Below the pieces are notes generated by a model. That model was not told where the DNA came from. It saw only the letters and a list, made by a program, of their open reading frames with translations, and made no database searches. A stretch of DNA of 64,000 nucleotides from Vicinamibacteria bacterium (lineage in GTDB: Bacteria > Acidobacteriota > Vicinamibacteria > Vicinamibacterales > JAENWD01), in the NCBI GenBank assembly GCA_963697705.1, contig CAVOPA010000003.1:832176-896175 (forward strand), given 5' to 3'. The stretch's first letter is position 1, and each line of letters starts with the position of its first letter. A program made the translations under genes and the position numbers. Positions 4,278 to 60,819 of this stretch are shown one piece after another.

Positions 4278-4547
4278 GAATGCGAAATGCACAATGCAAA
4301 ATGACACCAGCCAGATGCGGGCAGGCGTCGGCGCTCGCGTCAGCGGCGCGGCTTCCGGCGTTCAGCCGCTTGGCGTGAACCGCTGCGCTTAACGCCACGC
4401 CAGACGCAGCCCCTCAGCCAACCGAGCACGGTCCGTTCCCTCCGGCCGGCGCGCGAGTCCAGAGCCGTCGCCCGCCGCCAAGGCCTACCGCCAGCCGCCA
4501 GCCGCCAGCCGCCAGCCGCCAGCCGCCTGTGCATTGTGCATTACACG
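4278..4547. repeat. Word palindrome, ATGCACA-type arms around a ~220-nt core
   Basis: Left gaatgcgaaatgcacaatgcaaaatgaca (4278-4306). Right tgtgcattgtgcattacacg (4528-4547). tgcacaatgca and tgcattgtgca are exact reverse complements. The core ends in (CCGCCAG) x5.7 at 4488-4527. Confidence 0.7.
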
Positions 4548-4565
4548 CGTTAGTACAATCCCGCC

Positions 4566-7250
4566 ATGCTGTGCGCCCCTGCTGTGGTTCGCGCGTGCGC
4601 CTGCGCCGCGGCGATCGGGTCCCTGTGTGTGCTGGCGCGCGGGCAATCGGTGCCTCCGTCTGGAGACGTTCTGGACGGGTCTGCGACTCGAACCTGGGAG
4701 CGCCTCCTGAAGCTGCGCACCACAGCGAGCCTCCTGCACACCACCGCGCACCCGGACGATGAGCAGGGCGCGATGCTGGCACGGGTGAGCCGCCGCGACG
4801 GGGCGCGCACGGCGCTACTGACCCTCAATCGTGGCGAGGCCGGCGACAACGCACTCGGGCCCGAGCTGTTCGACGGCCTCGGGCTGATCCGGACAGCCGA
4901 GCTCGTGGCTGCCGGACGGTATTACGGGGTCGACGAGCAGTACTTCACGGCCGTTGCCGACTACGGCTTCTCGAAGCGGCTGGACGAAGCGCTGGAGCAC
5001 TGGGATCGCGCCGACGTGCTTCGCGACATGGTTCGCGTCATCCGCCGCACGCGTCCGCTCGTCGTCGTGTCGCGCTGGCAGGGCAACGAGCGCGATGGAC
5101 ACGGGCAGCACCAGGCAGCGGGCGCGCTCACGCCAGACGCGGTGCGACTGGCGGGCGACCCGTCAGCGTACCCGGAGCTGCAAAACGAAGGTCTCCGGCC
5201 ATGGGCGGTTCGGAAGCTGTTCGTCGGCGGCGTGCGCGAGGCGGAACCGTGGAACGTGCGCCTCGACACCAACGCGTACGATCCGGCGCTTGGCGCGTCG
5301 TACAGCCTGCTCGGACGCCTTGGCCTGAGCATGCAGCGGTCGCAGACGAGCGGGCGTTTCGATCCGTATGCCGCTGGCCAACCGCTCTTCTATCGGCGCG
5401 TGCGGCCCGACGTGGCGCCCGAGCACGAAGACGGATTTTTCCAGGGCCTCGACATCAGCCTGCCAGGTCTGTACGCGCTGCTCGGCGTGCCAGCGCCTGC
5501 CGGGCACGTGGCCGCGCTCGAAGCCATCGCTCGGGAGGTCGAGGCGGCACCCGCGGCCTTCGCGATCACCGATCCGTCCGCGTGCGTTCCGCCGCTCGCG
5601 CGCGGCCTGGCCGCCGTCCGCCACCTTCGCGATGCCACGGCGGATCCGGACGCCCGGTTCATCCTCGAGATCAAGGCACGCCAACTGGAAGAGGCACTCG
5701 TCTCCGCTGCCGGTCTGGAGCTCGTGGCGATGGCGGAGCCGCCACGTTCGGCGGGCGATGCACCGAGCCCGTTTGCGCAGCCACCGACGCTCGGGCCCGT
5801 AACGCCAGGGCAAACGGTGAGTGTTCGCGTCGTCGCCACGAACCGCGGACTCGGGGAACTCTCGGTATTACGGCTGGCGGTCACGCATCCCGGCGGGACG
5901 CTGATGACCGACGTACCGGCCGATGTCGCAGCGCTTCATCCGATGGAGCCGCGCGTGCACATGTTCGCCGTCACCATTCCCACGGATGCGCCGCCTACGC
6001 GCCCGTACTTCACGCGTGCATCCCCTGAGGACACGCGTTACGAGCTGCGCGACGCGTCCATGGCGGGACGCGCGGAGGCGCCGCCTCCGTTCACCGCATC
6101 TGCCGACGTGCGGATCAGTGGCGTGCCGCTGACGCTGAGGGTGCCCGTCATGCGGCGTGAGGCGGACCTGCCGTTCGGATACGAGCTCTATCCGCTCGAG
6201 ATCCTGCCGGCGGTCAGCGTCTCACTGCTCCCGCGGTCCGGGATCCTGGTGCGCGGTTCGGGGGGCGCGATCAGTATCGAGGCGCGCGTCACCAATCACG
6301 CGGCGCAGCCAACCGCGGGTACCGTCGCGCTCACGTTGCCCACCGGCTGGACGTCGTCTCCCGAGCGTGAGCCATTCTCGCTTGCAGCGGCTGGCGCAAG
6401 CCACTCGACGGTGTTCACGGTGCGGGTGCCTTCGCTTGCCGCAGAGGCACAGGCCGTCTCCGCGGCTGTCACGGTCGGCGGCCGCGTCTACACGAGTGAC
6501 ATAGAGGCGATCCGGCATCGCGACCTGCCGGTTCAGTACGTGTATCGCGAAGCCCGCACGGTCGTGCGGGGTGTGGATGTGTCGGTCGTACCCGGATTGA
6601 ACGTCGGCTACGTCATGGGCGTGGGCGATGAGGTGCCAGCGGCGATCACACAGCTCGGCGCGACGGTTCACCTGCTGAGCGACGTGGAGCTGGCATCGGG
6701 CGATCTGGCGCGCTTCGATACGATCATCACAGGCACCCGGGCCTACGCCGTGCGTGCCGATCTCCACGCCCACAACGACCGGCTGCTGGCCTTTGTGAAG
6801 GCCGGGGGCAACCTCGTCGTGCTGTACAACACGCCCGAGTTCACGCCGGCAACGCTGGCGCCCTTCCCGGCATCGCTGCCGGACGATGCGGAGGAAGTGT
6901 GCGAGGAAGGAGCTGCCGTCGAGATCCTGACCCAAGCAGACCCGTTGCTGCTGCGGCCGAACCGGATTGGACCCTCTGATTTTGCCGGCTGGATCGAGCA
7001 GCGCGGCTCGAAGTTCTTTGCCACCTGGGACGCGCAGTACACGCCTCTGCTCTCAACCCACGATCGCGGCCAACCGCCGCAACGAGGCGGCATGCTGCAC
7101 GCGCGGTACGGGAAAGGGCACTACACGTACATGGCGTACGCGCTCCACCGGCAACTGCCGGCCGGTGTGCCCGGGGCTTACCGGCTGCTCGCTAATCTAA
7201 TCTCTTTGGGACGGAGCGACGACCCCGGTGCTTCCGGGCGGCGGCCGTGA
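4566..7250 (+). CDS. PIG-L/LmbE-family deacetylase, long form with C-terminal GATase1/ThuA-like module
   Basis: LmbE signature LHTTAHPDDEQGAMLARVS...LTLNRGEAGDN. C-terminal FDTIITGTRAY...AGGNLVVLYNTPEF. Signal-like N-terminus. Confidence 0.85.
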   Translation: MLCAPAVVRACACAAAIGSLCVLARGQSVPPSGDVLDGSATRTWERLLKLRTTASLLHTTAHPDDEQGAMLARVSRRDGARTALLTLNRGEAGDNALGPELFDGLGLIRTAELVAAGRYYGVDEQYFTAVADYGFSKRLDEALEHWDRADVLRDMVRVIRRTRPLVVVSRWQGNERDGHGQHQAAGALTPDAVRLAGDPSAYPELQNEGLRPWAVRKLFVGGVREAEPWNVRLDTNAYDPALGASYSLLGRLGLSMQRSQTSGRFDPYAAGQPLFYRRVRPDVAPEHEDGFFQGLDISLPGLYALLGVPAPAGHVAALEAIAREVEAAPAAFAITDPSACVPPLARGLAAVRHLRDATADPDARFILEIKARQLEEALVSAAGLELVAMAEPPRSAGDAPSPFAQPPTLGPVTPGQTVSVRVVATNRGLGELSVLRLAVTHPGGTLMTDVPADVAALHPMEPRVHMFAVTIPTDAPPTRPYFTRASPEDTRYELRDASMAGRAEAPPPFTASADVRISGVPLTLRVPVMRREADLPFGYELYPLEILPAVSVSLLPRSGILVRGSGGAISIEARVTNHAAQPTAGTVALTLPTGWTSSPEREPFSLAAAGASHSTVFTVRVPSLAAEAQAVSAAVTVGGRVYTSDIEAIRHRDLPVQYVYREARTVVRGVDVSVVPGLNVGYVMGVGDEVPAAITQLGATVHLLSDVELASGDLARFDTIITGTRAYAVRADLHAHNDRLLAFVKAGGNLVVLYNTPEFTPATLAPFPASLPDDAEEVCEEGAAVEILTQADPLLLRPNRIGPSDFAGWIEQRGSKFFATWDAQYTPLLSTHDRGQPPQRGGMLHARYGKGHYTYMAYALHRQLPAGVPGAYRLLANLISLGRSDDPGASGRRP

Positions 7251-7253
7251 CAG

Positions 7254-7400
7254 CCGGAATGCACGATGCACAATGCACAATGACAGACGCGGGCACCGTC
7301 CTCGACATGAACACCGCGTGTGGCCGTGTCGAGCATGGTCGTTAGCTTCAGTCGCATCCAGTCTGCCGGCCGTTGTGCATTGTGCCTTGTGCATTACTCG
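7254..7400. repeat. Word palindrome, ATGCACA-type, between convergent genes
   Basis: Left ccggaatgcacgatgcacaatgcacaatgacag (7254-7286). Right ccggccgttgtgcattgtgccttgtgcattactcg (7366-7400). Loop contains a nested hairpin ctcgaca (7301-7307) / tgtcgag (7327-7333). Confidence 0.8.
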
Positions 7401-7412
7401 AGCAAGGCCGTG

Positions 7413-8899: not shown

Positions 8900-9766
8900 T
8901 TACGCATAGTCATAGAACCCCTTCCCCACCTTCTTGCCCACCCGCCCTGCCAGCACCATTCGCTTGAGCAGCGGCGGCGGCGCGTAAGCGGGCTCCCGGA
9001 ACTCCTCGAACATGATGTTCGCGATGTAGTAGGTGGTGTCGAGACCGACGAAATCCAGCAGCGTGAACGGGCCCATCGGGTAGCCGCACCCGAGCTTCAT
9101 GCCCTTGTCGATGTCGTCGAGGGTGCCGAGCCCGTTCTCGTAGGCGCGGATCGCGTCGAGCAGGTACGGCACGAGCAGTCGATTGACGATGAAGCCGGGC
9201 CGGTCGGGGGCGGTGATGGGTTCCTTCCCAAGCGACTGTGCGAACGCGAAAAGCGCCTCGTAGGTCGGCTCTGTCGTGCTCAAGCCGCGGACCACTTCGA
9301 CGAGCTTCATCAGGGGCACGGGATTGAAGAAGTGCAACCCGCCGAACCGGTCGGGGCGCGTCGTGGCGGCCGCAAGCTCGGTGATGCACAGAGACGAAGT
9401 GTTCGACACGATCAGCGTCCCGGCCCCGACGACTGCTTCGACGGCGGCGTAGGCCTGTCGCTTCGCATCCAGGTTTTCTACGATCGCCTCGATCACGAGA
9501 TCGCAGCCCGCGAGCGCGTCGAAGCTGGTAGCGCCAGACAGGTTCGCGAGCGTCGCATCGCGAGCCTCCTCCGTCACCTTCCCCTTCTGGACCCCCTCGT
9601 CGAGGAACTTGCGGACGCGGCCGAGACCCTTATCGAGTACGCCCTGGTCGACCTCACGCACAACGGTCCGGTAGCCGCTCTGTGCGCACACCTGCGCGAT
9701 GCCGGCCCCCATCAGGCCGCAGCCGAGAACTCCGACGGATTGATGGACATGGACGCTGTACCTCAC
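8900..9766 (-). CDS. 3-hydroxybutyryl-CoA / 3-hydroxyacyl-CoA dehydrogenase
   Basis: NAD fold VGVLGCGLMGAGIAQV, HFFNPVPLMKLVEVV, PGFIVNRLLVPYL, GYPMGPFTLLDFVGLD. Start set at the GTG (VRYSVHVHQS...). The track TTG at 9790 lies inside a repeat arm. Confidence 0.9.
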   Translation of the reverse strand: MRYSVHVHQSVGVLGCGLMGAGIAQVCAQSGYRTVVREVDQGVLDKGLGRVRKFLDEGVQKGKVTEEARDATLANLSGATSFDALAGCDLVIEAIVENLDAKRQAYAAVEAVVGAGTLIVSNTSSLCITELAAATTRPDRFGGLHFFNPVPLMKLVEVVRGLSTTEPTYEALFAFAQSLGKEPITAPDRPGFIVNRLLVPYLLDAIRAYENGLGTLDDIDKGMKLGCGYPMGPFTLLDFVGLDTTYYIANIMFEEFREPAYAPPPLLKRMVLAGRVGKKVGKGFYDYA

Positions 9767-9767
9767 G

Positions 9768-9900
9768 AAAGGCCAAAGGCTAAGGGCCAAAGGCTTAGGG
9801 CCAACCGCTGAAGGCCCAAGCGCGAGTCGGCTCGTGACCGCGAGCTCGCCAAGGGGCCTTTAGCCATTGGCCCTTAGCCATCAGTCCTTAGCCCTGAACC
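9768..9900. repeat. Word palindrome, GGCTAAGGGCCAA-type, filling the thiolase-hbd spacer
   Basis: Left aaaggccaaaggctaagggccaaaggcttagggcc. Right ggcctttagccattggcccttagccatcagtccttagccc. The right arm contains the thiolase stop codon and the left arm abuts the hbd GTG. Confidence 0.8.
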
Positions 9901-11063
9901 AGCGCCGCGATCCCCTGCCCGCCGCCGATACACGCCGCCGCCACGCCGCGATGTGCGCCGCGCCGTCGCATTTCGAGGGCGAGCGTGAGCAGCAGGCGCG
10001 TGCCACTCATGCCGAGCGGATGACCGAGGGCGATGGCGCCGCCGTTGACGTTCACCGCCTCGCGAGGCAGACCCAGCTCCTGTTCGACCGCGAGGTACTG
10101 CGCGGCAAAGGCCTCGTTGATCTCGAACAAATCGATGTCGCCGAGCGTCAGCCCCGTGCGCTCGAGCAGCATCCGTGTAGCCGGTGCCGGCCCCATTCCC
10201 ATCAGCGTCGGCTCCACCCCCGTCGTCGCCCAACCCGCGAGCCTGCCGAGCGGCGTGACGCCGAGACGCTCCACCGCCGCGCCCGAAGCCAGGATCAACG
10301 CCGCGCCGCCATCGACGATGCCGCTGGCGTTGCCGGCGGTCACACACCCGTTCTTCGAGAAGGCCGCAGGCAGCTTCGCCAAGACTTCGAGCGTTGTCTG
10401 CGGCCGCATGTGATCGTCGCGAGTGAAAGCTTCGACACCCTTGCGCGATTTCACCTCCACGGCAACGACTTCGTCCGAGAATCGCCCCGCGTCCCAGGCG
10501 GCCGCCGCGCGCTGCTGGCTGAGTAGCGCGTACTCGTCCTGGGCGTTCCGCGAGATGCCGTATTTACCGGCACAATTCTCGGCCGTCACCGCCATGCTGC
10601 AGCCGCAATGCGTGTCGGTGAGGGCCTCCCAGAGCGAATCTTCGAGGGTGCCCTGTCCAAGGCGCAGACCGCCGCGCAGCCCGCGGATCACGTGGGGCGC
10701 CTGGCTCATGCTCTCGGCGCCACCGGTCAGCACGACGTCAGCTTCGCCCAGCAGGATCATCTGCGCACCGCTGATCGCGGCCTGAATGCCAGACCCGCAG
10801 AGGCGATTCACGGTGAGCGCAGGCACGTCCACCGGCACGCCGGCTTTGAGCCCGATATGGCGCGCACCGTAGATCGCATCCGCGCTCGTTTGCAGCACAT
10901 TACCGAACACGACGTGGGCGATCTGATCCGGGCGAACGCCCGTCCGTGTGAACGCCGCCCGGGCCGCGATGGCGCCGAGGTCGAGCGCGGAGATGTCCTT
11001 CAACGCGCCGACATACTCCGCCATCGGCGTGCGGGCGCCGCCCACTATGAAGACTTCAGTCAT
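9888..11063 (-). CDS. Acetyl-CoA C-acetyltransferase (thiolase II)
   Basis: NRLCGSGIQA (active Cys), NEAFAAQ, GHPLGMSGTRLL, ACIGGGQGIA. Confidence 0.93.
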   Translation of the reverse strand: MTEVFIVGGARTPMAEYVGALKDISALDLGAIAARAAFTRTGVRPDQIAHVVFGNVLQTSADAIYGARHIGLKAGVPVDVPALTVNRLCGSGIQAAISGAQMILLGEADVVLTGGAESMSQAPHVIRGLRGGLRLGQGTLEDSLWEALTDTHCGCSMAVTAENCAGKYGISRNAQDEYALLSQQRAAAAWDAGRFSDEVVAVEVKSRKGVEAFTRDDHMRPQTTLEVLAKLPAAFSKNGCVTAGNASGIVDGGAALILASGAAVERLGVTPLGRLAGWATTGVEPTLMGMGPAPATRMLLERTGLTLGDIDLFEINEAFAAQYLAVEQELGLPREAVNVNGGAIALGHPLGMSGTRLLLTLALEMRRRGAHRGVAAACIGGGQGIAALVQG

Positions 11064-11064: not shown

Positions 11065-11241
11065 CCCGTGATCCGTTATCCGTGATCCGTTGGTTCGTCG
11101 ATCCGCTGTTCGTCGTCCGTTCCGTCGTTCCGTCATCCGCTGACCGCGCATTCGCCGCCGTGGGAGAGGCCGACTTGTGAATCGCTCCGGCGATCAGCGT
11201 CAACGCGGCGGATACCGGATAACGGATAACGTGTCAACGGG
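11065..11241. repeat. Word palindrome, ATCCGTT-type, filling the IPMDH-thiolase spacer
   Basis: Left cccgtgatccgttatccgtgatccgttggttcgtcgatccgctgttcgtcgtccgttccgtcgttccgtcatccg. Right ggcggataccggataacggataacgtgtcaacggg. cgttatccg pairs with cggataacg. Confidence 0.75.
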
Positions 11242-11264: not shown

Positions 11265-12287
11265 TCACCCACCGCAATCGTCCCCCTGCGTACCGCCGAT
11301 ATCAGGCGTGCCGATGCCGTCGTTGACCACGTGGCGGACGGCCCGGTCGATCGCAGCCGCTTCGTCAGTCAGACCGAGATGCGCGAGCATCAGGCCGGCG
11401 GACAGGATCGCACCCATCGGGTTCGCCACGTTCCGGCCCGCCAGCGGCGGCGCCGAACCGTGCACCGGCTCGAACATCGAGGTGCGGCCAGGGTGCACGT
11501 TCGCCGACGCGGCCATTCCGAGGCCTCCCTGTAGGGCGGCGCCAAGGTCGGTGATGATGTCGCCGAACAGGTTATTGGTCACGATGACGTCGAACTGCGC
11601 CGGCTCGCGCACCATCTGCAGCACCAGGGCGTCGATGTACTGGTGTGACGCATGGATGTCCGGAAATTCCGGTGCCACGGCGCGGAAGATGCGCTGCCAC
11701 AGGGCATGCCCGTCGGCCATGGCGTTGCTCTTGTCGGTCATGCACACGCGCGTGCGGCCGTGCACGCGTGCCCATTCGAACGCATACCGCACGATGCGGT
11801 TGACGCCCTTCCACGTATTGACCTCTTCCTGGATTGCGATCTCGTCCTCGGTGCCAGGCTTCACGCGACCGCCGACGCCAACATACACACCCTCGGTGTT
11901 CTCACGGAAGATCGCCATGTCGATGTCGGCCGGTGTGCGGTCCTTCAGCGGACAGAGCCGCGCGTCGAAGAGCGTGACGGGCCGGTAGTTCACGTACAAA
12001 TCGAGCTCGAAACGAATCCCGAGCAGGATGTCGCGCGCGTGCCGGCTGTCGGGCACCCGCGGATCGCCGAGCGCCCCGACGAGCACCGCGTCGAAGTCGT
12101 CCCTGAGCATCACGTACCCATTCGCGGGCACGGTGACGCCGGTCTCGAGGTAGTAGTCGGCGCCCCAAGGGATTTGTTCGATCTCGAACGTGCGCCCGAA
12201 GACATCGCCGACACGCCGGATCGCGCGGAGGGCTTCGGCTACGACCTCTTTGCCTATGCCGTCGCCGGGGATGACCGCCAGCCGCAT
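11265..12287 (-). CDS. Isocitrate/isopropylmalate dehydrogenase family enzyme (3-IPM or tartrate dehydrogenase-like)
   Basis: MRLAVIPGDGIGKEV, YVNYRPV, FRENTEGVY, NLFGDIITDLGAALQGGLG, EPVHGSAP. The C-terminus looks frameshifted (see findings); a corrected frame would end near 11234. Confidence 0.85.
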   Translation of the reverse strand: MRLAVIPGDGIGKEVVAEALRAIRRVGDVFGRTFEIEQIPWGADYYLETGVTVPANGYVMLRDDFDAVLVGALGDPRVPDSRHARDILLGIRFELDLYVNYRPVTLFDARLCPLKDRTPADIDMAIFRENTEGVYVGVGGRVKPGTEDEIAIQEEVNTWKGVNRIVRYAFEWARVHGRTRVCMTDKSNAMADGHALWQRIFRAVAPEFPDIHASHQYIDALVLQMVREPAQFDVIVTNNLFGDIITDLGAALQGGLGMAASANVHPGRTSMFEPVHGSAPPLAGRNVANPMGAILSAGLMLAHLGLTDEAAAIDRAVRHVVNDGIGTPDIGGTQGDDCGG

Positions 12288-12326
12288 GTCATGCAGGATG
12301 TCGGATGACGGATGCCGAATGCAAGG
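12285..12326. repeat. Low-coordinate arm of the GGATGNCG-word palindrome enclosing the four-helix-bundle ORF
   Basis: catgtcatgcaggatgtcggatgacggatgccgaatgcaagg. Includes the IPMDH start codon (12285-12287). Confidence 0.8.
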
Positions 12327-12415
12327 CTCGTCGATTCTGTCCGCCGGCGCCGAGCACAGAAGCATGTCGGATGGCGGGGGCCGGCCCCCGCGCCTAGATA
12401 TTCGACGATCCCGAT

Positions 12416-12788
12416 TCAGCCGCGACCTGGGTTGGAGCGCGCGTTGCGCAGAATCACAGTTAGTACCTGACACCAAGCCGTTAGCCTCGCGCAGCAATGG
12501 CGTAGCTGCCTCGACGAGCGCCGGCCGCTTGTTGCTGATCACGCGGAGCCAAAAATACGACTCGCGCGCCTCCTTCAAAGCGATAGCGCCCTTTGCGATG
12601 AAATCTGCCTTGCTCTGTCCAGCAGAGGCCTCCTCGAGGTTCGAGCCTATGCTCGTAGCGGCCTTGAACAATTGCCAGATCAAATGCCGGGTGGTGGCTC
12701 GCAGGTCCCGAACGGAATCGCAGAAATCGATCACGTCGCAGGCGAAGTTGAACGCACGATCATGAATATCTCGCGGCTTCTGCGTCAC
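12416..12788 (-). CDS. Four-helix-bundle protein (23S rRNA intervening-sequence protein family, TIGR02436/PF05635-like), apparent frameshift near the 3' end
   Basis: FNFACDVIDFC...QLFKAATSIGSNLEEASAGQSKADFIAKGAIALKEARESYFWLRVI. After ...LLREANGLV the family-typical tail (QVLTVILRNARSNPGRG-stop at about 12416) is in the neighbouring frame. As sequenced, the ORF reads through into the IPMDH gene, giving the 507-aa track ORF. Confidence 0.75.
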
Positions 12789-12860
12789 AGCGGCACGCGC
12801 ATGCGAAGGCCATGCCTGAGGTCAGCAATCGTCAAATCGTCCCTGCCGACCTGCAGTGCT

Positions 12861-13012
12861 ATGCGCCATCCGCCATCCGCATCCGCCATCCTGCATCCGC
12901 CATCCTGGCATCCGGCATCCGTCGCATTCGGCATCCGGCATTCGACATCCGGCATTCGACATTCATCGACATCCGACATCCGACATCCGGCATCCGGCAT
13001 CAGGCATCCGAG
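12861..13012. repeat. High-coordinate arm (CATCCG/CATTCG words, ~150 nt) of the same palindrome
   Basis: ...gcattcggcatccggcattcgacatccggcattcgacattcatcgacatccgacatccgacatccggcatccggcatcaggcatccgag. Ends 3 nt from the thiolase stop at 13015. Confidence 0.8.
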
Positions 13013-15814: not shown

Positions 15815-15881
15815 GGCCTGCCTAAAGGCAGGCACTACACGGGATCCACCTGCGCGAAAGGCGGGCACTACACGGGACTAC
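15815..15881 (+). repeat. Two REP-like hairpin units (GCACTAC family)
   Basis: ggcctgcctaaaggcaggcactacacgggatcca and cctgcgcgaaaggcgggcactacacgggactac. Confidence 0.75.
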
Positions 15882-15954: not shown

Positions 15955-18900
15955 CTAGAACTCGAACTTCAGACCGAGCTGCACTCGGCGCATGTCGGGC
16001 GCGAAAGGCGTACGAATGCCCTTGTAGCCGTAGATTGCATCGAAGCTGCTGATGTCGGCATTACCGCTGTCCACGAACATGTTCGGCATGGTTCAGCAGG
16101 TTGTATGCCTCGAAGCGGAACTGAACGGCATAATGGTCGTTGAACCGGATACGCTTGCTGAGCGTCGCGTCGACGTTCCACCATCCCGGACCGCGAAACG
16201 CGTCGCGCTTCGTCATGTCGGATGGATACGGGCCGTAGTCGCTCGTCCCCTGCACCGGGTGCACATACCCGCCGGCGAACGGAACAACCGGTGTGAGGTC
16301 GAGGAGCTTGAACTGGTTCGGGTCTCCCGTGGCCGCCCCGCCCGTCGCGCTCCGGCTGATGCCGACGGGATCCTCCATGCGCATGCAGAGCACGAGGCCG
16401 TTCGTGCAGTCGAAGATCGAGAACGAATAGCCCGTCCTCGCGTTGAACAGGAACGCCATCTGCCAGTCGCCGAACAAGGCCCGCTTGACCCCGTAACCAT
16501 CGTTGAAGAACGGCAGCTGCCAGATCCCGCTGAACGCGACGCGGTGCCGCACGTCGAACTCGGCGTATCCGTAGTCGAGCATCGGGTCGAATGCGTCGAG
16601 GTAACCCAGGTTGAAGTTGTTGCCCGCGATGTTGTCGCTGAACGTGCTGCTCAGGTTGTCCTTCGCCTTCCCGTAACGTGTACGAGCCGTTGAACTGCAG
16701 GCCCGTGTTCGCCACGCGACGGCTTTCGAGCGAGAACTGCACGCCGTGGTACTGCGAACGGCCGCGGTTGCCGCGCGTGTTGAACGCCGTGTACTGCGTA
16801 TTCGGACGCGCGGTTGCGCCGCCAGCTCCCAGGTAGACGAGCGCGGCACCGGGCTTGTTCGGGTCGGCCAGATCGTACAGCTTCCGCCCGAGCGACCCGG
16901 AGTACTCGACCTTCGCGACGAGGTTCGCAGCCACCTCGTGCTGGTACGACAGGCCGTAGAAGTGCGAGTAGGCCGTCTCGATGTTCTGGTCCACGTGCCT
17001 GACGCTGCCGCGCGGGATGGTCTTCGTCACACCGGCCACACCGCCGAACGGACCGGCCGAGTCTACGAAGATCGGCATCGTCGGAACGTCCGTCGGGGCG
17101 TCGATGGAGGCGACCAGATACTGGGGCGGGTTGAACAGCACGTTGTAGGTGACGTTGCCGAAGTTGCGCTCGTACGACATGCCGTACCCGCCGCGGACGC
17201 TCGTCTTGCCGTCCCCGCGGACGTCCCACGCAAAGCCGACGCGTGGCGCCCAGTTGTTCTTGTCGGGCTTCCACAATTTACCGATCGGGCTCTCGTTACT
17301 CGGGAGCACATGTCCGTGCGCGAGGTTCTGGACCAACTCCGCCGGGCTGCTCGTGTTCACCGACGCGTTCGGGTCGCCGTAATAGAAGTTCGAATCGTAC
17401 TTCGGGTCGCTCTTCGTCTGCGGTCCGTAGTACTCGTAGCGCATACCCAGGTTGATGGTCAGGCGGTTCCCGAGCGCCAGTTGTCGTTTGCGTACAGCGC
17501 GAACTCGTTGTAGCGGTTGTTGCTGAAGAAGCTCGGGAGCGGGACCGGGGTCGTGTAAGTCCCACCTGGGAAGCCGCCAGGATTGATCGCCGTCTGGAAG
17601 CGCGCGAGCCGGCCCAGAACGAAGTTGTCCAGGGACGGCAGCTGCAGCCGCAGTCAGGTTCAGCGCCTCGACGGAGTTCGCGTAGGCGCCGAACGTCCGC
17701 TCGTCCTTGATGTGCACGTAGGAGCCGCCGAACCGGAAATCGTGCTTGCCCTTGATCCAGGTCTGGTCCTGATACAGCTGGAACAGCTGCTGCGGGCCTC
17801 CAAACGGAATGGCGCTTCCCGGGCTCCAGGGCAGGTAGCCGGGGAATGCGATGCGGTACCTCTGTAGGCGCACCGGCGTCGTCGGGTTCATGTAGAGCGT
17901 CGGCTGCGGGTCACCGTTCAAGCGGCTGATCTTCCATCAGACGATTCCAGACCACCTTGCTCTGCGCGGTGAACGTGGGCGAGAAGACATGCGTGAACGA
18001 GCCGAGGAGGTTGTGGTTCTTGTTCAGATACCCCGTTTCGAACCCGTCGTACGGACTGGAGGCGTTCGTGCCTGGCTCTGCTTCCTGGTTCTGGTACGCA
18101 TACCGCACGTACAGCTGCGTGTTCGGGCCCATGCTGTAGTCGACTCGATTCACCCACTGATAGTTGTCCTGCGGGTCGCCGCCGCCGGCGTCGATCGGCA
18201 GGCTCTTCTCGACGCGTCCGAACACCGGGAGGTCCGCAGGCAGACTGTTGAAAGCTCCGGCATCGGCGCCCACGATCCCCGTCACGTCGGCGCGGGTCAG
18301 CGTCGGACCGTTGATGTTGGCTCCCCCGTACGCGTTGAAGAACGCCTGGGTCTCGGGTGCGGAAGCCGAGAGGAACTGAGGCGTCGGTACCCAGGAGATC
18401 TCCGTGTCCGCGCTGCGCACGCGGATGTACTCGAGGCTCGAGAAGAAGTGCAGCTTGTCTTTCACCACCGGGCCGCCGATGCTGAAGCCGGTCTGATCGC
18501 GGCGGTACTTCCCCTTGTCGATGTCGTTCGACGTGTTGTCGTAGGAGTTGGCCGTCAGCTTCTCGTTTCGGAAGAACTCGTAGGCCGTGCCGCGGAACGT
18601 GTTCGTGCCCGACTTGGTGGCTACGTTGACGATGCCGCCGGTGGCGCGGCCGTACTGCGCCGAGAAGTTGTTGGTGATGACGCTGAACTCCTGAACGGAG
18701 TCGAGCGGCACGTCCTGGCCGACGGTCGCGTCGAACTCGTTGTTGTTGGCCGAACCGTCGAGCAGGATGTTCGTGCTGGCCGAACGGGCGCCGTTGATCG
18801 AGTATCCGGTGCCGCGGTCCGACGCGAGGTCGCGCGACACGTTGCCCGAGACGCCGACCAGGTCGTAGACGTTTCGCGTGAGGGTCGGCAGCTCGCGGAT

Positions 18901-19720: not shown

Positions 19721-19836
19721 TACATCACGTGCTCTAGACTCCACCGCAACGCACTGAGCTGGTGCGGGCGGCCGTCCTCGGGATACCGGCGTTGCCGACG
19801 ACCGATGCCGCACCCATGCAAGGGGAGAAAGAACTG

Positions 19837-22770
19837 ATGAAATCTCGAATTCTAGCCTTCGTCGCGGCCCTGATGGTCGCGAACGCTGGCTACGGATGGG
19901 CCCAGGAAACCACAGGGTCCATCGCCGGCCGTGTGTCCGACCCGCAAGGGCTGGCGGTGCCCGGCGCCACGGTGACAGTCACCGGCGCGCGGGGAGCGCA
20001 GACCTTCACCGCGGACGCGGAGGGACGTTTCAACGCTCCGTTCCTTACGCCTGGCACCTACACGGTTCGGGCAGAGCTGCAGGGCTTCAAGGCGACCGAG
20101 CAGAAGGACGTGGTCGTGCGCCTCGGGCAGCGCGTCGATCTGCCGATCACCATGGCAGTGGGTGGCCTCACCGAAACGGTTGAAGTCACCGGAGGATCGC
20201 CGACGATAGACACCTCGACGACGACCGTCGGAGCGGTGATCAACTCTGACCTGTTGCAGCGCGTGCCGATCGGCCGGCGCTTCAGCGACGCACTCTACAT
20301 CGCGCCTGGCGTGACTGACAGCGGCGCGGGCGCAGCCAACCCGTCCGTCGCCGGAGGCAGCGGCCTCGAGAACCAGTACGTCGTCGACGGCGTGAACATC
20401 ACGAACACCGGCTACGGTGCGCTTGGCTCGTACTCCATCTACCACGGGTCGCTCGGCAATGGCGTCACCTACGACTTCGTGAACGAGATCCAGGTCAAGA
20501 CCGCGGGCTACGAGGCCGAGTACGGGCAGTCCACGGGCGGTGTCGTGAACGTGCTCACCAAGAGCGGCAGCAACAGCCTGCGCGGCAGCGTGTTCGGCTA
20601 CGCGCGGCCCTCGGCGCTCGAAGGCGAGTTCAAGCAGATCCAGACGGAGAACGGCTCCATCAACACGTCCGGCACGCAGACGAGCGACGCCGGGTTCACG
20701 GTCGGCGGCCCGGTGCTGCGCGACAGGATCTTCTTCTTCGGCGCGTACAACCCATCGTGGGAGACGCGCACGATCACCGCGCCGGCCGGCTTCCCGCTCG
20801 AGAGCCTCGGTGAGGTCGATCGCAAGCGGCACATCAACTCGTACTCCGCCAAGGGGAGCGCGCAGCTCGGGAACGGTCACCGCGTCGACGCGTCGTTTTT
20901 CGGTGACCCGGCAAAGGGCGACATGGGACCACAGCGGCTGTCGTCGCTCGTCCGCACCGATACATCGGCGTTCAGCTCACTCGAGTACGGCGGTCACAAC
21001 CAGACGCTGAAGTACGACGGTGTCATCCGTCCGAGCTGGCTCGTCGAAGCGACGTGTCTCGCGCGCGAAGAACAACCTGCAGGAGTTTCCGTCGGTCAAC
21101 TCGTTCCAGATTCAGGACACCACCGTGGTGCCCAACATCGTGAGCGGCGGCATCGGGTTCTACGAGGCGGGCAACGAGGGCATCAACCTGCAGTACCAGG
21201 CCAAGTCCACACACATCTTCGGCGGACACCAGATCCGGTACGGGGTGCTCTACGAGGACATCGAGTACAACAACATCAACCAGTACACGGGCCCGACCTT
21301 CACGCTGTCGGACGGGCAGCAGACGGCGACCGGAGCGAGCGTCCGCGTGCTGAGCGACCCCAATGTCGGGAAGATCTACCGCGCGATTCGGGCAAACCTG
21401 AACACGGACCGCTCGACGACGCAGCAGTACACCAGCTTCTTCGCGCAGGACACGTGGCGGGTGGGCAACCGGCTCACGATTCGACCGGGCATCCGCTACG
21501 AGCAGCAGAAGCTGGTCGGAACGCTTGACGGACTTCAAGTGGAGCGGCAACTGGGCGCCACGCATCGGCGCCACCTATGACGTGCTCGGGAACGGCCGCT
21601 CGAAGCTGTATGCGAACTGGGGCCGCTTCTTCGCCAAGGTGCCGAACGATCTCGCGGCCCGTGCGCTGTCGGCCGACGCGGGCGTGACGCGCGCGGACTA
21701 CTACGACGCCGCGCTGACGCAGCCGATTCCCGAGGGTGTGCCCGCCGGGCCCAACCTCGAGACGCGACACCTGAACTTCGCCGGGCTCTCGCCGTCGGAT
21801 TTCGATCCGGACGCCAAGTCCACCTACCTGGACGAGACGCTGGTCGGGTTCGAGTTCGAGCCGTTCACGAACCTGAACGTCGGCGCGCGGTGGGTCCACC
21901 GCCGGTTCGGGCGGATTCTCGAGGACGTGGGCACCGTGCCGATGGTCGGGTTCTTCCTCCCGGACAGCGGGGCGGACAGCGTCGAGTACTTCATCACCAA
22001 CCCAGGACCGAAGACGCCTGTCGTTCCGATTCCCGGCTTCGACATCAGCTTCGAAAACGCGATCCACGACTACGACGCCGTAGAACTGACAGCAGACAAG
22101 CGGTTCGGCAACAACTGGGGCCTGCAGGCGTCCTACCGCTGGTCGCGGCTGTATGGCACGTTCGAGGGCTTCTTCAGGAACGACAACGGCCAGTCGGACC
22201 CGGCGATCACCTCGCTGTTCGACTTCCCGACCAACGACCCGAGCTACGCCGCGATCGGCGTGCCGGAGTTCGGCTTCCGCGGCGATATCCGGTATCTGGG
22301 GTCGGCCGGCGCCGGTCCGCTCCCGACCGATCGGCCGCACCAGGTCAAGGTGTACGGCAACTACTCGATGAACTGGGGCCTCAACCTGGGCGCGGGCGTG
22401 ACAGCTCGGTTCCGGGATACCGCTCACGGCCCTCGCCGCGAACCCGTACTACGAGAACGAGGGCGAGATTCCGGAAGGGCCTCGCGGCTCGGGCGTCCAG
22501 ACGGCGGACGGGTTCAAGACGCGGACGCCGTTCACCTACGACGTCAACCTGCACACCGACTATGCGGTCAAGATGGGCGGGACGCGGAGGGTCGTGCTCC
22601 TGGCCGACATGTTCAACCTGTTCAACGTGAGGCGCGCGACGGGCTACGATCAGGACACGGAGTCCTCGTTCGGTGCGCTGAACCCCGATTACGGGCAGCC
22701 GGTGATCGCCCGGGTGCCGCAGTTCCAGACGCCGTTCCAGCTGCGGTTGGGCGCGCGGTTCGAGTTCTAG
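19837..22770 (+). pseudogene. CarboxypepD_reg / TonB-dependent receptor-like outer-membrane protein, about 3 frameshifts
   Basis: RBS GGGGAG then MKSRILAFVAALMVANAGYGWAQETTGSIAGRVSDPQGLAVPGATVTV...; ends ...FQLRLGARFEF-stop. Frame switches are needed near 21052, 21522 and 22400. Confidence 0.8.
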
Positions 22771-26343: not shown

Positions 26344-26364
26344 CCGGATTGGGGCAGTAGACGC

Positions 26365-26398: not shown

Positions 26399-26410
26399 CA
26401 CGTACCGGAA

Positions 26411-40075: not shown

Positions 40076-40112
40076 CTCGTAGAAAATTCGGACTGCCGAT
40101 AATTGCCCGCAC

Positions 40113-42221: not shown

Positions 42222-42375
42222 GGTAAAGGGCCAAGGGCTGGGGCCAGGGGCCAGCGCTTGCGCGCCATGACGATCGCTCCCGCGTTGGCCACGGCCCTCC
42301 TGCGTCTTCGCGTGTCCGCAGCAGCAGCAGCTCGACTGAAGTCTTTAGTCTTGGCCCTCTAGCCCGCAGCCCCTT
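42222..42375. repeat. Weak GGGCCAAGGGC-word palindrome in the tsaD-yjbQ spacer
   Basis: Left gtaaagggccaagggctggggccaggggcc. Right gtctttagtcttggccctctagcccgcagcccctt. Complementary words are present but the register is not collinear. Confidence 0.45.
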
Positions 42376-43508
42376 CAAAGCGCCAGGCTCGCCTCAGCGT
42401 TGAGATCCCAGCCCGCGCGGACGCCGGCGTGGTAGGCACGCAGGCCGGCGGCGGCGATCATCGCCGCGTTGTCGGTCGAGAGCGCCAGGCTCGGGATGAA
42501 CACGGGCAGCCCTTCGCGCGCGCCGCGTGCCAGGGCGTCGGCGCGCAGCCGGCTGTTCGCCGACACGCCGCCGGCGATGCCCACGCTAGCGGCACCGAAA
42601 CCGCGCGCCGCCGCGAACGTGCGATCGAGCAGCGTCTCGACGACGGTTCGCTGGAAACTGGCGCAGAGGTCCGCAACCTGTGCAGGGGTCAGGATTTCGC
42701 CATCAGGGTTGTTGCCCGCCTGAAGGCGGGCACTACCGGGATCACGGCCTCTGCGCTGACCATGCGTCGTCTTGCTCGCGACTCCACCTGGGTCGCGGAC
42801 CACGCGCAGCACCGCGGTCTTGAGGCCGCTGAAGCTGAAATCGAGACGGCCGGGATCATCTGGTGTGCGCCGATCCGCATGGGTGATGCGCATCTGCGGA
42901 AATTCGAAGGCGCGGTCGTTGCCATCGCGGGCGGCCCGATCGATCGCCGGCCCGCCCGGATACCCCAGACCGAGAAGCTTCGCGACCTTGTCGTAGGCTT
43001 CCCCCGCCGCATCATCTCGCGTGCGGCCCAGCGTGCGATAGTCGCCCGGCGCGGTCACTGCGTAGAGGCTCGTGTGCCCACCCGACACAACCAGCACCAC
43101 GGCTGGCAATGGCAGTGGGCCGTTCTGGAGGAAGAGCGACTCGATGTGGCCCGCCAGGTGGTGCACCGGCACCAGCGGCAGCCCGCGGGATGCGGCGAGC
43201 GCCTTCGCGAACGACACGCCGACGAGCAGTGATCCGACCAGCCCCGGCCCGGCGGTGACCGCAATCGCGCCGATGTCGTCCAGCGTCGAGCCCGCCTGCG
43301 CGAGGGCGCTCTCGACCACGCCGCAGATGTCTCGCACGTGCTGTCTCGACGCGATTTCCGGCACGACACCGCCCCACTCGCGGTGGATGTCCGCCTGGGA
43401 CGCGACCACGTTGGACCGCACCATCCAGGGACGTGCAGGGTCGTCCACCTCCTCGACGACCGCCGCCGCCGTCTCATCGCAGGAGGTCTCGATGCCGAGC
43501 ATCCGCAT
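42375..43508 (-). CDS. tsaD: tRNA N6-adenosine threonylcarbamoyltransferase
   Basis: [45 protein letters not shown]. Carries an extra segment containing a REP-like element (see findings). Confidence 0.93.
42712..42749 (+). repeat. REP-like hairpin unit (GCACTAC family) inside the tsaD coding sequence
   Basis: ttGCCCGCCTGAAGGCGGGCACTACcgggatcacggcc. The 23-nt core is identical to the array units at 48466-48570. Confidence 0.85.
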
Positions 43509-44627: not shown

Positions 44628-44740
44628 GTAGTACGGCCTTCAGGCTGGCCCCTGCGTCAATGCCGTCGCCACACGAGCTGACTCGTTACTGTCTGGCCTT
44701 CGCGACTTCGCGACTTCTAGTGCCTGCCTTCGGACTGGCC
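44628..44740 (-). repeat. Two degenerate REP-like units in inverted orientation (cdd-mtnA spacer)
   Basis: gtagtacggccttcaggctggcc (44628-44650) and ctagtgcctgccttcggactggcc (44717-44740), compared with the reverse unit GTAGTGCCCGCCTTCAGGCGGGCC. (cttcgcga) x2 lies between them. Confidence 0.6.
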
Positions 44741-48326: not shown

Positions 48327-48397
48327 GTGCGCTGAATCCTGGTCAGAGTCTCGTGGCGGCGACGTTTCGGCTGCGCTCGATGCGCTCGCGGGATCGC

Positions 48398-48632
48398 GGC
48401 CCGCCTGAAGGCGGGCACTACGTGACGATCACGGCCCACCTTGAGGCGGGCACTACGGACATCACGGCCCGCCTGAAGGCGGGCACTACGCGACGATCAC
48501 GGCCCGCCTGAAGGCGGGCACTACGCGACGATCACGGCCCGCCTGAAGGCGGGCACTACGCGACGATCACGGCCCGCCTGAGGCGGGCACTACGACGATC
48601 CGGCCCGCCTGGCGGGCACTACCTGACGATCC
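48398..48632 (+). repeat. Tandem array of 7 REP-like hairpin units (31-35 nt) between deoA and nupC
   Basis: Units start at 48398, 48433, 48466, 48501, 48536, 48571 and 48602. Consensus GGCCCGCCTGAAGGCGGGCACTACGCGACGATCAC. Three central units are identical. The last unit overlaps the deoA stop at 48619. Confidence 0.9.
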
Positions 48633-52654: not shown

Positions 52655-52813
52655 TGACGGCGGGCGACGGGCGATGCGGTCGGGCGACAGCGGCCTGGGC
52701 CGTGACGGTGCAACGCGGCGGCGGGCAACCCCGGTGTGCGACTCTATCGAGTCGCCTCACGCGGGAGCGGCTCGCGCAGCAAGGCGCTGACTTCCGCTGA
52801 GAACGTGGCCTGC

Positions 52814-56145: not shown

Positions 56146-56220
56146 GCAATTCGGAACGCGGAGTACGGAGTTCGCAATTCGGTCGGAGTTTGGGCTTCGG
56201 ACAGCCAGGTACGGAGCTCA
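56146..56220 (+). repeat. CGGA-word tract upstream of the MGMT-like gene
   Basis: gcaattcggaacgcggagtacggagttcgcaattcggtcggagtttgggcttcggac. Shares TTCGCAATTCGG with 57046-57128 and ggagtttgggcttcgg with 31365-31380. Confidence 0.7.
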
Positions 56221-57045: not shown

Positions 57046-57128
57046 CATTCGCAATTCGGAATTCGGAATGCGGCGCTCGGAATTAGAGCCGACTTCGGAG
57101 CGCGGAGTGCGGAAAGCGAGGCACGGAG
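57046..57128 (+). repeat. CGGA-word tract beside csbD
   Basis: cattcgcaattcggaattcggaatgcggcgctcggaattagagccgacttcggagcgcggagtgcggaaagcgagg. Confidence 0.7.
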
Positions 57129-57204: not shown

Positions 57205-57262
57205 CCCTTAGCCTTTAGTCTTCAGCTTTAGCTCCTGGACTACGCTTCAGCCCCTCTGTCCT
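57205..57262. repeat. One-armed CTTAGCC-word tract
   Basis: cccttagcctttagtcttcagctttagctcctggactacgcttcagcccc. Same word family as 9851-9900 and 26486-26515. Confidence 0.6.
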
Positions 57263-59828: not shown

Positions 59829-59866
59829 GCGCTGCGGGCTCCGGGCCGGAGCTCTGGCCTCCGACT

Positions 59867-60097
59867 GGTGCTGGGCTGGGCTGATGGGCTGTGCGCGGGC
59901 AGCGGCTCGAGGCTGGGGCACTCCGGGCTGGTCGTGACGGCGACGGCGCTCCGCCTGCCGGTCGTCGCAAAGCGCGACAGTAGCCGTACGGAAATCCGCT
60001 CCCCTGCCCTCGCTCGACAACAGGTATCATCTCTAAGACGTGCGCGGTCCCTCGGTTTTTCTGAACGCCCTGCAGTGCCAGCCTCCAGCCCCAGCCC
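59867..60097. repeat. Word palindrome, GGGCTGG-type arms around a ~180-nt core
   Basis: Left ggtgctggggctgggctgatgggctg-like tract (59867-59895, plus ggctcgaggctggggc at 59904-59919). Right ccagcctccagccccagccc (60078-60097). Confidence 0.5.
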
Positions 60098-60224
60098 TTT
60101 CAGCTGGTGGAATGCGGTTTGCTGCTCAGGCGGTGTTCTGGTGTCTCCGCTCCGACGACGATCCCTCGGGCCGTCTACTGGGGGGCGGGCTTTCGGACTG
60201 GGTCCATCCACAGGAGGCAATCCA

Positions 60225-60728
60225 ATGAAGCAGGTAGTCCTCGCTGGCCTCGTTGCTGGCGCACTCGCGGCAGGGCAGCCCGGAGTGGCCTTCGCGCAGG
60301 CAACGGCCGGCAGTACGGAGCACAAGACGGCGGGCGCCGCGGCCAAAACCGGCCCGGCGAAAACCGCGTCCGCTCCCGGCGGCGCCACCTCGCTCGGGTC
60401 GGTGCGGATCACGCACGCCGTGAAAGCCAACGGCGAACCCCTCAAACCGGGTACCTACAGCGTGCGGCTCACGCCGGAAGAAGCCAAGCCCGATGTGAAG
60501 GGTCAGACGGCGGGGCTCGAGCGCTGGGTCGAGTTCCTGCAGGGCAACCAGGTGAAAGGACGCGAGGTCGTCAGCATCGTGCCCGACACCGAGATCGCCC
60601 AGGTCGCCGAGGGCAAACGCGTGCCGAGCGGCAGCTCACGCGTCGAAATGCTGAAGGGCAACGAATACGTGCGCGTGTGGATCAACCGCGGAGGGAACAA
60701 CTATCTGATTCACCTGCCGCCGGCGTAA
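60225..60728 (+). CDS. Small secreted hypothetical protein
   Basis: GGAGG RBS then MKQVVLAGLVAGALAAGQPGVAFAQA. Coding-like remainder. No family recognised. Confidence 0.6.
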   Translation: MKQVVLAGLVAGALAAGQPGVAFAQATAGSTEHKTAGAAAKTGPAKTASAPGGATSLGSVRITHAVKANGEPLKPGTYSVRLTPEEAKPDVKGQTAGLERWVEFLQGNQVKGREVVSIVPDTEIAQVAEGKRVPSGSSRVEMLKGNEYVRVWINRGGNNYLIHLPPA

Positions 60729-60730
60729 CG

Positions 60731-60819
60731 AAATGTCGGATGCAGGATGGCGGATGCCGGATGCCAGAAAGTCCTTGGCGTCACATTCGACATCCAGCAT
60801 CCGACATCCCGCATCCTCT
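60731..60819. repeat. Word palindrome, GGATGNCG-type, between convergent genes
   Basis: Left aaatgtcggatgcaggatggcggatgccggatgccag. Loop aaagtccttggcgtcac. Right attcgacatccagcatccgacatcccgcatcctct, abutting the rng stop at 60818. Confidence 0.8.

Follow-up and report, generated by a model that had tools for sequence, protein, structure and literature searches.

The intergenic spacers of a 64,000-nt stretch of DNA from a soil Vicinamibacteria bacterium (Acidobacteriota; assembly GCA_963697705.1, contig CAVOPA010000003.1, positions 832,176 to 896,175 of the forward strand; hereafter the window) harbor hairpin elements made of tandem heptanucleotides. Each element is composed of two inverted arms, both of them tandem arrays of one heptamer (sometimes an octamer), around an arbitrary loop of 3 to about 600 nt, and is located directly downstream of stop codons. 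Two forms are present: in one, built like the open reading frame (ORF)-containing intervening sequences (IVSs) of 23S rRNA genes, the loop contains a gene of the PF05635 family, and the other, far more numerous, is devoid of ORF and uses the same arm words. The arms undergo unit-scale indels and are kept as mirror images, and genome-specific word families occupy different spacers in relatives. We give about even credence to the reading that these are lineage-wide, dispersed intergenic IVS-like hairpin repeats with heptamer-array arms, in ORF-bearing and ORF-less forms, arising by the steps proposed below. Such elements are known in kind, as IVS-like and repetitive extragenic palindromic (REP)-like hairpin repeats; their link with PF05635 is unreported.

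The pairing of the arms was followed at one orthologous spacer, the convergent spacer downstream of rng, the RNase G gene (60818-62341, minus strand), whose protein is 96% identical to those of Vicinamibacteria metagenome-assembled genomes (MAGs). The order-wide sample comprised about 2 Mb of sequence around rng, from 80 genomic and 80 metagenomic loci, the best 80 genomic RNase G matches being all from Vicinamibacterales or Acidobacteriota soil MAGs; loci labelled L plus a number are stretches from relatives or from PF05635 carriers that were compared with the window. An inverted-repeat score of at least 12 was reached in this spacer at 61 of 155 loci, versus 5/155 shuffles and 1/155 coding controls. 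The 23 species with clean period-7 arms present 21 word clusters, including the following words:

Window: GGATGCN
L003 and L004 (RNase G 96% identical): AATGCAC
L083: AATGAAA
L006: GAATGAC
L087: GTTCACG
L081: AGTAGGC (12 units) facing TACTGCC (8 units)

In 20 of these 23 species, the left word and the reverse complement of the right word are at a distance of 0-1, whereas the mode between species is 3-4. Covariation is strong, the pairing being kept and the sequence not, and the initial annotation of this DNA, which proposed a conserved architecture with a free sequence, is borne out by 21 words with matched arms in 23 species. Between the window (GGATGCA) and L003 (CAATGCA), drift in place is doubtful since the window genome carries both families elsewhere, and word replacement is as likely as drift; drift does fit the comparison of L085 with L086. 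Four other tract-bearing spacers of the window show no tract in L003-L006. We also observed that a segment of about 275 nt with GGGCTGG/CCAGCC arms (59829-60106) is missing from L003/L004 (compared with L003, reverse complement, 9132-9161); homology past this segment resumes at GTGGAAYGC, no target-site duplication is recognisable and the flanks have diverged too far to provide a clean empty site.

The window words form about six families (AATGCAC, AAGGGCY/AAGGCTA, GGATGNC, CGGAAT/CGGAGT, GATCCGT and CCTCCAG/CCAGCC), each found at one to five loci, and thus do not differ at each locus as had been proposed. Across the order, more than 100 different canonical words are present in the rng-centred loci; since these words do not align, a single consensus element to which all arms would reduce is ruled out. 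Identical words at different spacers account for 6.7% of pairs within one genome, compared to 0.46% between genomes (about 15 times less). The same outer (GGAATGC or GTAATGC) and inner (AATGACAGAC) ends delimit AATGCAC arms at three window positions, 4275, 7254 and 39995, and at the rng spacer of L003, L004 and L083, loci that are not orthologous. The ends GGAATGC...AATGACA of arm 4275-4303 are common to 7254-7290 and L004, and the tract 39995-40075 matches the rng-spacer arm of L003 with 81% identity over 64 nt (E-value 4e-8), the match running about 20 nt past the array. Because this family with defined ends sits at non-orthologous loci (window, L003, L004), copying or spread between loci does occur. 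The earlier view of locus-specific sequences, opposed to the spread of one element, thus gives way to genome-specific multi-copy families. Similarly, the GGATGNC palindromes 12291-13010 (with ORF) and 60733-60816 (without ORF) share 100% identity over 21 nt. In an all-against-all comparison of spacers, matches were confined to the arms and the loops of one family were unrelated in sequence and length, which rules out classical MITEs (miniature transposable elements with inverted repeats). Comparison of the window with the 2 Mb of relatives gave arm-level matches only, plus about 20 nt of adjacent sequence.

The ORF-bearing form is represented in the window by one gene:

12459-12788, minus strand: ORF of the PF05635 family (23S rRNA intervening-sequence protein, four-helix bundle, Avd-like), in the loop of a GGATGNC palindrome

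This ORF matches PF05635 with an E-value of 2e-11 (44.5 bits, cut-off 33.8) and stands between the arms 12291-12322 and 12864-13010 (loop of 540 nt). A PF05635 (S23p/IVP) ORF in the loop is what ORF-bearing IVSs exhibit; IVSs are inserted in a 23S rRNA helix, whereas every element of the window lies between protein-coding genes. In Coxiella, the 23S rRNA IVS encodes an S23p ORF and has a 28-bp terminal stem cut by RNase III, such excision having been shown for rRNA IVSs, and its 5' arm contains the heptamer GACAGAT in 2-3 tandem copies, depending on the strain (PMC4990558). The PF05635 family is homologous to Avd of diversity-generating retroelements (DGRs; PMC10053308). Sampling of further PF05635 genes, spread over at least six phyla, showed tandem 6-8-mers on both sides in 21/21 (18 inverted, 3 direct); counting the window, word arrays flank the gene on both sides in all 22 examined. 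The sampled loci are:

MAG and metagenome loci L037 (10165-10479), L165, L167/L168, L169/L170 and L171-L175: inverted arrays at 11/11 loci (9 distinct genes); hosts are Acidobacteriota (most assumed from similarity), one Planctomycetes hit and one Deltaproteobacteria MAG
Plasmid loci L176-L185: arrays on both sides at 10/10 (7 inverted, 3 direct); hosts are Nostoc, Anabaena, Euhalothece, Gloeocapsa, Pseudanabaena, Bernardetia, Chondrinema, Treponema and Chlorohelix, from cyanobacteria, Bacteroidota, Spirochaetota and Chloroflexota

The word is kept between PF05635 orthologs that are 71-75% identical, as seen with GCAGAAT in L172/L175 and GGATGYC in the window and L167. When the window (12323-12863) is compared with L167 (1266-1835) and L168 (537-1105), the flanking genes and arms are collinear and the PF05635 segment is on the opposite strand (protein 75% identical). 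With this segment flipped and its flanks collinear, L167/L168 carry the loop in inverted orientation between the arms, which at the level of sequence indicates recombination between inverted arms. PF05635 cassettes are also found inside operons, i.e., imuB-dnaE2 in two species (L172 2501-2914, L175 1201-1551), cas2-cas1 in Anabaena cylindrica (L176), between subunits of a resistance-nodulation-division (RND) pump in Chondrinema (L182) and pdxA-ksgA in a Planctomycetes contig (L174). A GAATG/GGATG core was present in the arrays of four of seven independent cassettes (window, L167, L169, L172, L173 and L175 were looked at), the ORF-less palindromes being far more varied, and its recurrence may hint at a sequence preference. 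A literature search, of incomplete coverage, retrieved no paper on such repeats in Acidobacteria and none tying PF05635 genes generally to flanking heptamer arrays.

In the window, the significance of pairing was estimated by comparing the observed arm-pair score with 60 dinucleotide shuffles per spacer. Strong pairs of an arm and its reverse-complement arm were found in six spacers (arms of 23-49 nt, 76-92% complementary, z 5.3-11.6), where the observed score was reached by 0/60 shuffles in each, and RNA folding of four of these six palindromes predicted long hairpins in all four (z -3.1 to -6.0). The window palindromes have the terminal inverted repeats and long enclosing stem of IVSs, with loops of 18-601 nt, compared to the 17-230 nt given initially. 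The strong arms are:

7258-7280: left arm, AATGCAC-family array, in a convergent spacer, 7 nt past the stop at 7250
7373-7395: right arm, TTGTGCA array, partner of 7258-7280, loop 92 nt (23 nt, 91% complementary, z 9.3; RNA fold z -5.0)
9768-9826: left arm, AAGGGCC/AAGGCTA family
9845-9893: right arm, partner of 9768-9826, extending into the stop codon of a thiolase gene (9888-9890) (pair 9778-9826/9845-9893, 49 nt at 76%, also 25 nt at 88%, z 11.6; RNA fold z -5.8)
11066-11090: left arm, GATCCGT family, 2 nt from a thiolase start codon (11061-11063)
11209-11231: right arm, CGGATAA array, partner of 11066-11090, loop 119 nt (pair 11067-11089/11209-11231, 23 nt, 87% complementary, z 5.3)
12291-12322: left arm, GGATGNC family, adjoining the start codon (12287-12289) of an isopropylmalate-dehydrogenase-like gene
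12864-13010: right arm, about 20 units of CATCCGN (period 7, 19.9 copies), stopping 4 nt short of the stop of a second thiolase gene (13015) (pair 12291-12322/12924-12955, 32 nt, 91% complementary, z 10.7)
26409-26441: left arm, AAGGGCT family, just past a terminator-like GC hairpin (about 26366-26393)
26485-26520: right arm, partner of 26409-26441, containing the stop codon of an M14 peptidase gene (26517-26519) (pair 26410-26435/26485-26510, 26 nt, 92% complementary, z 9.0; RNA fold z -3.1)
60733-60765: left arm, GGATGNC family, 4 nt past the stop at 60728
60784-60816: right arm, partner of 60733-60765, 1 nt short of the RNase G stop codon (60818-60820) (pair 60738-60763/60791-60816, 24 nt at 88% complementarity, z 10.0; RNA fold z -6.0)

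Three further pairs are borderline, and the remaining tracts are unpaired:

4275-4303: borderline left arm, AATGCAC family, in a divergent spacer (pair 4286/4530, z 2.7)
4528-4547: borderline right arm, TGTGCAT x2, 225-231 nt from its partner 4275-4303, directly preceded by (CCGCCAG)x5.7
42224-42254: borderline left arm, AAGGGCC/GGGGCCA family (pair 42224/42350, z 2.1)
42340-42374: borderline right arm, adjoining the stop codon at 42375
59867-59916: borderline left arm, GGGCTGG-type, inside the segment 59829-60106 (pair 59897/60078, z 2.7)
60076-60097: borderline right arm, CCAGCC-type, partner of 59867-59916
39995-40075: unpaired direct arrays of AATGCAC, then GATGCGAC, then GGATGCN, beginning within a TAA stop (39994-39996)
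57047-57128: unpaired direct CGGAAT/CGGAGT tracts in a divergent spacer
31311-31400, 56146-56220, 57205-57235, 22910-22964, 52655-52700, 44698-44717 and 30148-30205: further unpaired tracts

The initial annotation described an arm plus a reverse-complement arm as the common arrangement; of its 19 loci, this stands for the six strong and three borderline pairs, whereas the other ten are tandem or degenerate direct tracts only, no palindromy being found at 22909-22980, 30148-30205, 31311-31400, 39995-40075, 44700-44716, 52655-52700, 56146-56220, 57046-57128 and 57205-57262. The objection that the tracts could be no more palindromic than composition-matched random sequence applies to the unpaired loci and not to the six spacers. 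The coordinates above also agree with its remark that arms end at, or include, stop and start codons. No reverse-complement arm was detected for 39995-40075 (pairing z -0.6; RNA fold of 39994-40080 z -0.04), and the tract 30148-30205 forms a 9-bp stem only (RNA fold of 30140-30215 z -0.1). The terminator-like hairpin 26366-26393 (CCCCGCCAC...GTGGCGGGG, then CTTTTC) stands between the stop of a TonB-receptor gene and the left arm of the palindrome, and because it precedes this arm, the palindrome arms 26409-26520 are outside it; a scan of 26300-26560 for consensus terminators called none, the hairpin having only 4 T. A perfect (CCGCCAG)x5.7 array at 4488-4527, in the divergent spacer, adjoins the right arm of the AATGCAC palindrome and has no reverse-complement partner.

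The window has a G+C content of 63-71%, and its gene map, established from codon usage and checked with NCBIfam and Pfam, comprises about 50 genes and 36 spacers of at least 30 nt, the protein-family scan covering about 20 of the 50 genes. In a scan of periods 2 to 16, period 7 gave 17 tracts (488 nt) versus 0.2 expected in shuffles, period 14 gave 12 and all remaining periods 0-4 each; Tandem Repeats Finder agreed with this heptamer periodicity. Period-7 tracts cover 752 of 7181 non-coding nt (10.5%) and 7 of 56819 coding nt (0.01%). The tandem short words reported in spacers are thus strongly enriched over shuffles and restricted to non-coding DNA; because period 7 dominates, these words, first described as 6-8 nt long, are almost all heptamers, and they occupy about 17 of the 36 spacers, with a palindrome in 6-9, instead of most spacers. 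A CRISPR array is ruled out, as the units are contiguous without spacers and the partner arrays inverted. An assembly artefact is ruled out too, the same architecture being present in independent ENA, JGI and NCBI MAGs and in finished plasmids. A DNA-level search of the window against a plasmid collection gave no match, one look-up for an identical protein was likewise empty, and an Rfam scan of the whole window at gathering thresholds detected no rRNA and no other RNA family. Apart from the repeats, the high-GC reading frame (judged at third codon positions) shifts inside apparently single genes at 15969-17921, 19762-21580 and 21525-22770; these frameshifts stem from errors of long-read assembly or mark pseudogenes, and single-base coding indels also separate L001 and L002 from the window.

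Period 7 is the commonest non-coding period in the rng-centred loci too, where an inverted partner lies within 800 nt of 82 of the 178 tracts and a direct one accompanies 20 of the 178. Leaving out the rng spacer, period-7 palindromes were found in 9/51 convergent (17.6%), 34/544 tandem (6.2%) and 1/95 divergent (1.1%) spacers. In tandem spacers, the median distance of the arm is 5 nt to the stop upstream and 26 nt to the start downstream (31 nearer the stop, 4 nearer the start); in convergent spacers, it is 7 nt to the stops. Because of this proximity to stop codons and of the gradient between spacer types, the palindromes are considered as elements of gene 3' ends. On either strand, G outnumbers C in the 5' arm in 47 versus 15 period-7 palindromes, compared with 38 versus 19 other intergenic hairpins. 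No T-run follows the arms, the stop or start of the next gene following instead; with loops of 18-601 nt in the window and no T-tract, an intrinsic (Rho-independent) terminator, i.e., a short GC-rich stem with a loop of 3-8 nt and a U-tract, is ruled out. Among the structural roles initially evoked, RNase III sites are suggested by analogy with rRNA IVSs (PMC4990558), whereas a terminator acting at the RNA level found no direct support. The palindrome 4275/4528 brackets a divergent promoter region, and neither transcript would hold both arms.

Contigs 99.0-99.6% identical to the window present zero unit-number changes in six spacers, which rules out hypervariable contingency-type repeats; contigs about 98% identical exhibit 9-nt indels in one arm only, at 7275 and 11092. 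Word copy number, whose comparison between close strains had been proposed as a check, thus varies at about 98% identity and is constant at 99.0-99.6%, and the idea of slippage is supported by these slippage-type, unit-scale indels. In L005/L084, the spacer contains a minimal AATGAC-GATT-GTCATT hairpin overlapping the stop codon of the neighbour, where L006 has 4-5 GAATGAC units per side, and several arrays start within a stop codon, e.g., TAATGCA at 39994. The minimal hairpin, the one-arm indels and the stop-codon starts fit growth and collapse in place.

We propose that slippage would build the arrays, that both arms would be homogenised across the hairpin, through gene conversion or intramolecular template switching, and that some copying step would seed new spacers. 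A read-through transcript of both arms could form a double-stranded RNA stem of 20-50 bp to be cut by RNase III, as rRNA IVSs are, and such a cut would end transcripts, or part them from one another, at the 3' ends of genes. The elements might persist there because promoter-bearing spacers would not tolerate them. More speculatively, the PF05635 protein may be the cognate partner of its flanking word array.

Several points weigh against this reading of dispersed IVS-like repeats. The window contains only one PF05635 gene, at least five other word families having no ORF in view, and three of the ten plasmid genes have direct instead of inverted arrays. To our knowledge, PF05635 proteins have no catalytic activity and are neither nucleases nor transposases. 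Because strains at 99-99.6% identity show no unit-number change, array turnover is slow. Because target-site duplications and clean empty sites were not found, mobility is deduced from distribution only. Cleavage of the window stems by RNase III would rest on analogy; arm mismatches on the sense strand comprise 41 G-U and 43 A-C, a test that is uninformative rather than negative because control hairpins were equally flat and showed no excess either. Finally, 6 of 40 loops hold a canonical terminator-like hairpin between the arms, and many transcripts may for this reason end before the second arm.

Other explanations deserve consideration. The elements could be neutral mutational by-products of in-place slippage and quasi-palindrome template switching, without trans factor, mobility or function, PF05635 genes merely sharing the same permissive spacers. 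This is unlikely, although it accounts for gene-end sequence being part of the first unit (TAATGCA at 39994; AAATGAC becoming GAATGAC in L006), for the minimal hairpin of L005/L084, for the one-arm indels between 98%-identical strains, for arbitrary words of more than 100 kinds and for the lack of a strand-specific G-U signal. It leaves unexplained the genome-specific families at unlinked spacers, the same defined arm ends at non-orthologous loci of different genomes, the 21/21 association of PF05635 with flanking arrays across phyla and the G-rich polarity of the 5' arm (47 versus 15). Rather unlikely, too, are host-selected RNA structures at 3' ends (terminators lacking a U-tract, barriers to 3'-exonucleases or insulators of convergent genes), in which only pairing would be selected, sequence would drift and words would buffer register shifts. 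The 3'-end position with its gradient (convergent > tandem >> divergent), the compensatory word changes under an architecture kept across the order at the rng spacer and the strong predicted RNA hairpins all suit such selection. It accords poorly with the missing T-run, with loops of up to 600 nt that can contain whole genes, with canonical terminator-like hairpins inside or beside the arms, with the flat G-U count (41 versus 43, the control being flat as well), with the 4275/4528 pair around a divergent promoter region, and with close relatives that do without elements, and without visible replacement, at four of five window spacers.

Movement of REP-, bacterial interspersed mosaic element (BIME)- or MITE-type elements by a conventional transposase encoded outside the window, either of the REP-associated tyrosine transposase (RAYT)/Y1 type or carried by an insertion sequence, appears improbable. 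Like REPs and the REP doublets known as REPINs, the window elements form multi-copy, species-specific families of inverted pairs at gene 3' ends (PMC3116915), and a classical REP-like repeat, GTAG-headed and with a GC hairpin, is also found in this genome (48392-48631, 42714, 15816). However, REP units are ruled out since single arms are not self-complementary and fold no better than shuffles (z -0.7 to +1.1), whereas the REP-like 35-mer 48462-48496 folds (z -2.4). The arms have no GTAG or CGTC head, their ends reading GGAATGC, GTAATGC, ATGTCGG or GAAGGGC, GTAG itself being confined to the unrelated 35-nt repeat, read in reverse complement. Loops are unrelated within families, unlike those of MITEs and REPINs, target-site duplications were not seen, and no Y1 or other transposase was identified among the about 20 of 50 window proteins scanned. 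That the arrays would be binding sites for a nucleoid-associated or global regulatory protein such as gyrase, integration host factor (IHF) or HU is very improbable. E. coli BIMEs do bind gyrase and IHF. In Geobacter metallireducens, pairs of this architecture, on opposite strands, variably spaced and in several word classes per genome, were read in this way (PMC2700814). The diversity of words, more than 100 unrelated ones in the order and about six within a single genome, is incompatible with sequence-specific recognition by one or few proteins, and the elements are almost absent from promoter-bearing divergent spacers.

The REP-like repeat just mentioned is separate from the heptamer elements. 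It consists of seven tandem 35-nt units (48392-48631), in each of which ACTAC, read as GTAG on the opposite strand, comes after a 7-bp GC hairpin (GCCCGCC-TGAA-GGCGGGC), and two further copies at 42714-42736 and 15816-15838 are inside regions called coding.

Returning to the IVS-like reading, the over-representation of intergenic tandem heptamers in bacteria has reportedly been known since 2007 without explanation, and since about 1990 rRNA IVSs and the S23p/PF05635 ORFs they carry have been labelled selfish elements of unknown origin. Paired word arrays on opposite strands were already noted in Xanthomonas (PMC4692102) and Geobacter (PMC2700814). Heptamer excess, IVSs and paired arrays may be one phenomenon, namely heptamer-armed hairpin elements colonising gene 3' ends as genome-specific families, with arms staying complementary through complete word turnover. 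The window and its relatives add the link of the PF05635 family with flanking heptamer arrays. As a tentative extension, to which we lend limited credence, PF05635 proteins could be the cognate partners of widespread hairpin elements with heptamer arms; the ORF cassettes, including rRNA IVSs, would be autonomous, and the ORF-less palindromes and arrays of Acidobacteriota, cyanobacteria, Xanthomonas, Geobacter and others their non-autonomous derivatives. If true, one mechanism would cover the origin of rRNA IVSs, the role of Avd/PF05635 members outside DGRs and the bacterial intergenic heptanucleotide excess. In practice, the elements create spurious ORFs and can flip DNA between their arms, and those inside operons (imuB-dnaE2, cas2-cas1, RND pump genes) bear on annotation and operon expression.

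Several known systems resemble the window elements in part. Mazel in 1990, Mrazek in 2007 and Elhai in 2008 are said to have described cyanobacterial short tandemly repeated repetitive (STRR) heptamers and long simple-sequence repeats (LSSRs) of 5-11 bp units. The window tracts, tandem 7-nt units enriched in intergenic DNA, have the features of such heptanucleotide simple-sequence repeats of the STRR and LSSR 5-11 type. The TAACTGA repeats of Beggiatoaceae form direct arrays, in Beggiatoa mostly upstream of start codons (PMC4679880). All share an excess of intergenic tandem heptamers in large-genome bacteria, with several words per genome in cyanobacteria, but STRRs, LSSRs and Beggiatoaceae repeats were described as direct arrays and are not known for inverted pairing, covarying arms or a tie to gene 3' ends. 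In Xanthomonas (GGGAATC) and Nostoc (GGGGA(C/T)T), intergenic heptamers form 70-75 close opposite-strand array pairs per genome, at positions not shared by related species (Rehm et al., 2015; PMC4692102). There, one dominant G-rich word per genome was studied as a G-quadruplex former and tied neither to PF05635 genes nor to gene 3' ends, whereas about six unrelated words, mostly incapable of forming G-quadruplexes, are found here per 64 kb.

The paired tandem octa-/heptanucleotide sites of G. metallireducens, in classes 1-3 (GTTGCTYN x4, TCTCCGTS[Y] x3 and MTYCTGA x5), likewise comprise several word classes in one genome, in opposite-strand pairs at variable distance; they are intergenic and also between operon genes, are absent from the sister species and were read, without test, as IHF/HU "global regulator binding sites" (Aklujkar et al., 2009; PMC2700814). 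Neither cross-species covariation nor positional statistics nor a PF05635 link was reported there. REPs, BIMEs and REPINs have in common with the window elements genome-specific multi-copy families, hairpin-forming inverted doublets and a location at gene 3' ends, and in REP systems the RAYT "master" copy is flanked by its own repeats, to which PF05635 is possibly equivalent here. However, a REP unit is a palindrome with a GTAG or CGTC head, whereas the window arms are tandem direct heptamers that do not fold on themselves, and REPIN loops are homologous between copies, unlike those of the window elements.

The ORF-containing 23S rRNA IVSs of Coxiella burnetii, Leptospira, Brucella and Xanthomonas differ from the window elements by their insertion in helices 9, 25 or 45 of 23S rRNA, whereas the latter are between protein-coding genes, in many copies, with several word families per genome and arms of up to 20-25 units, and would be cut by RNase III by analogy. 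Short forms devoid of ORF are known among rRNA IVSs (Salmonella) as among the window elements. With long-stem inverted repeats around a loop that may contain a PF05635/S23p ORF, these IVSs have the very build of the palindrome 12291-13010.

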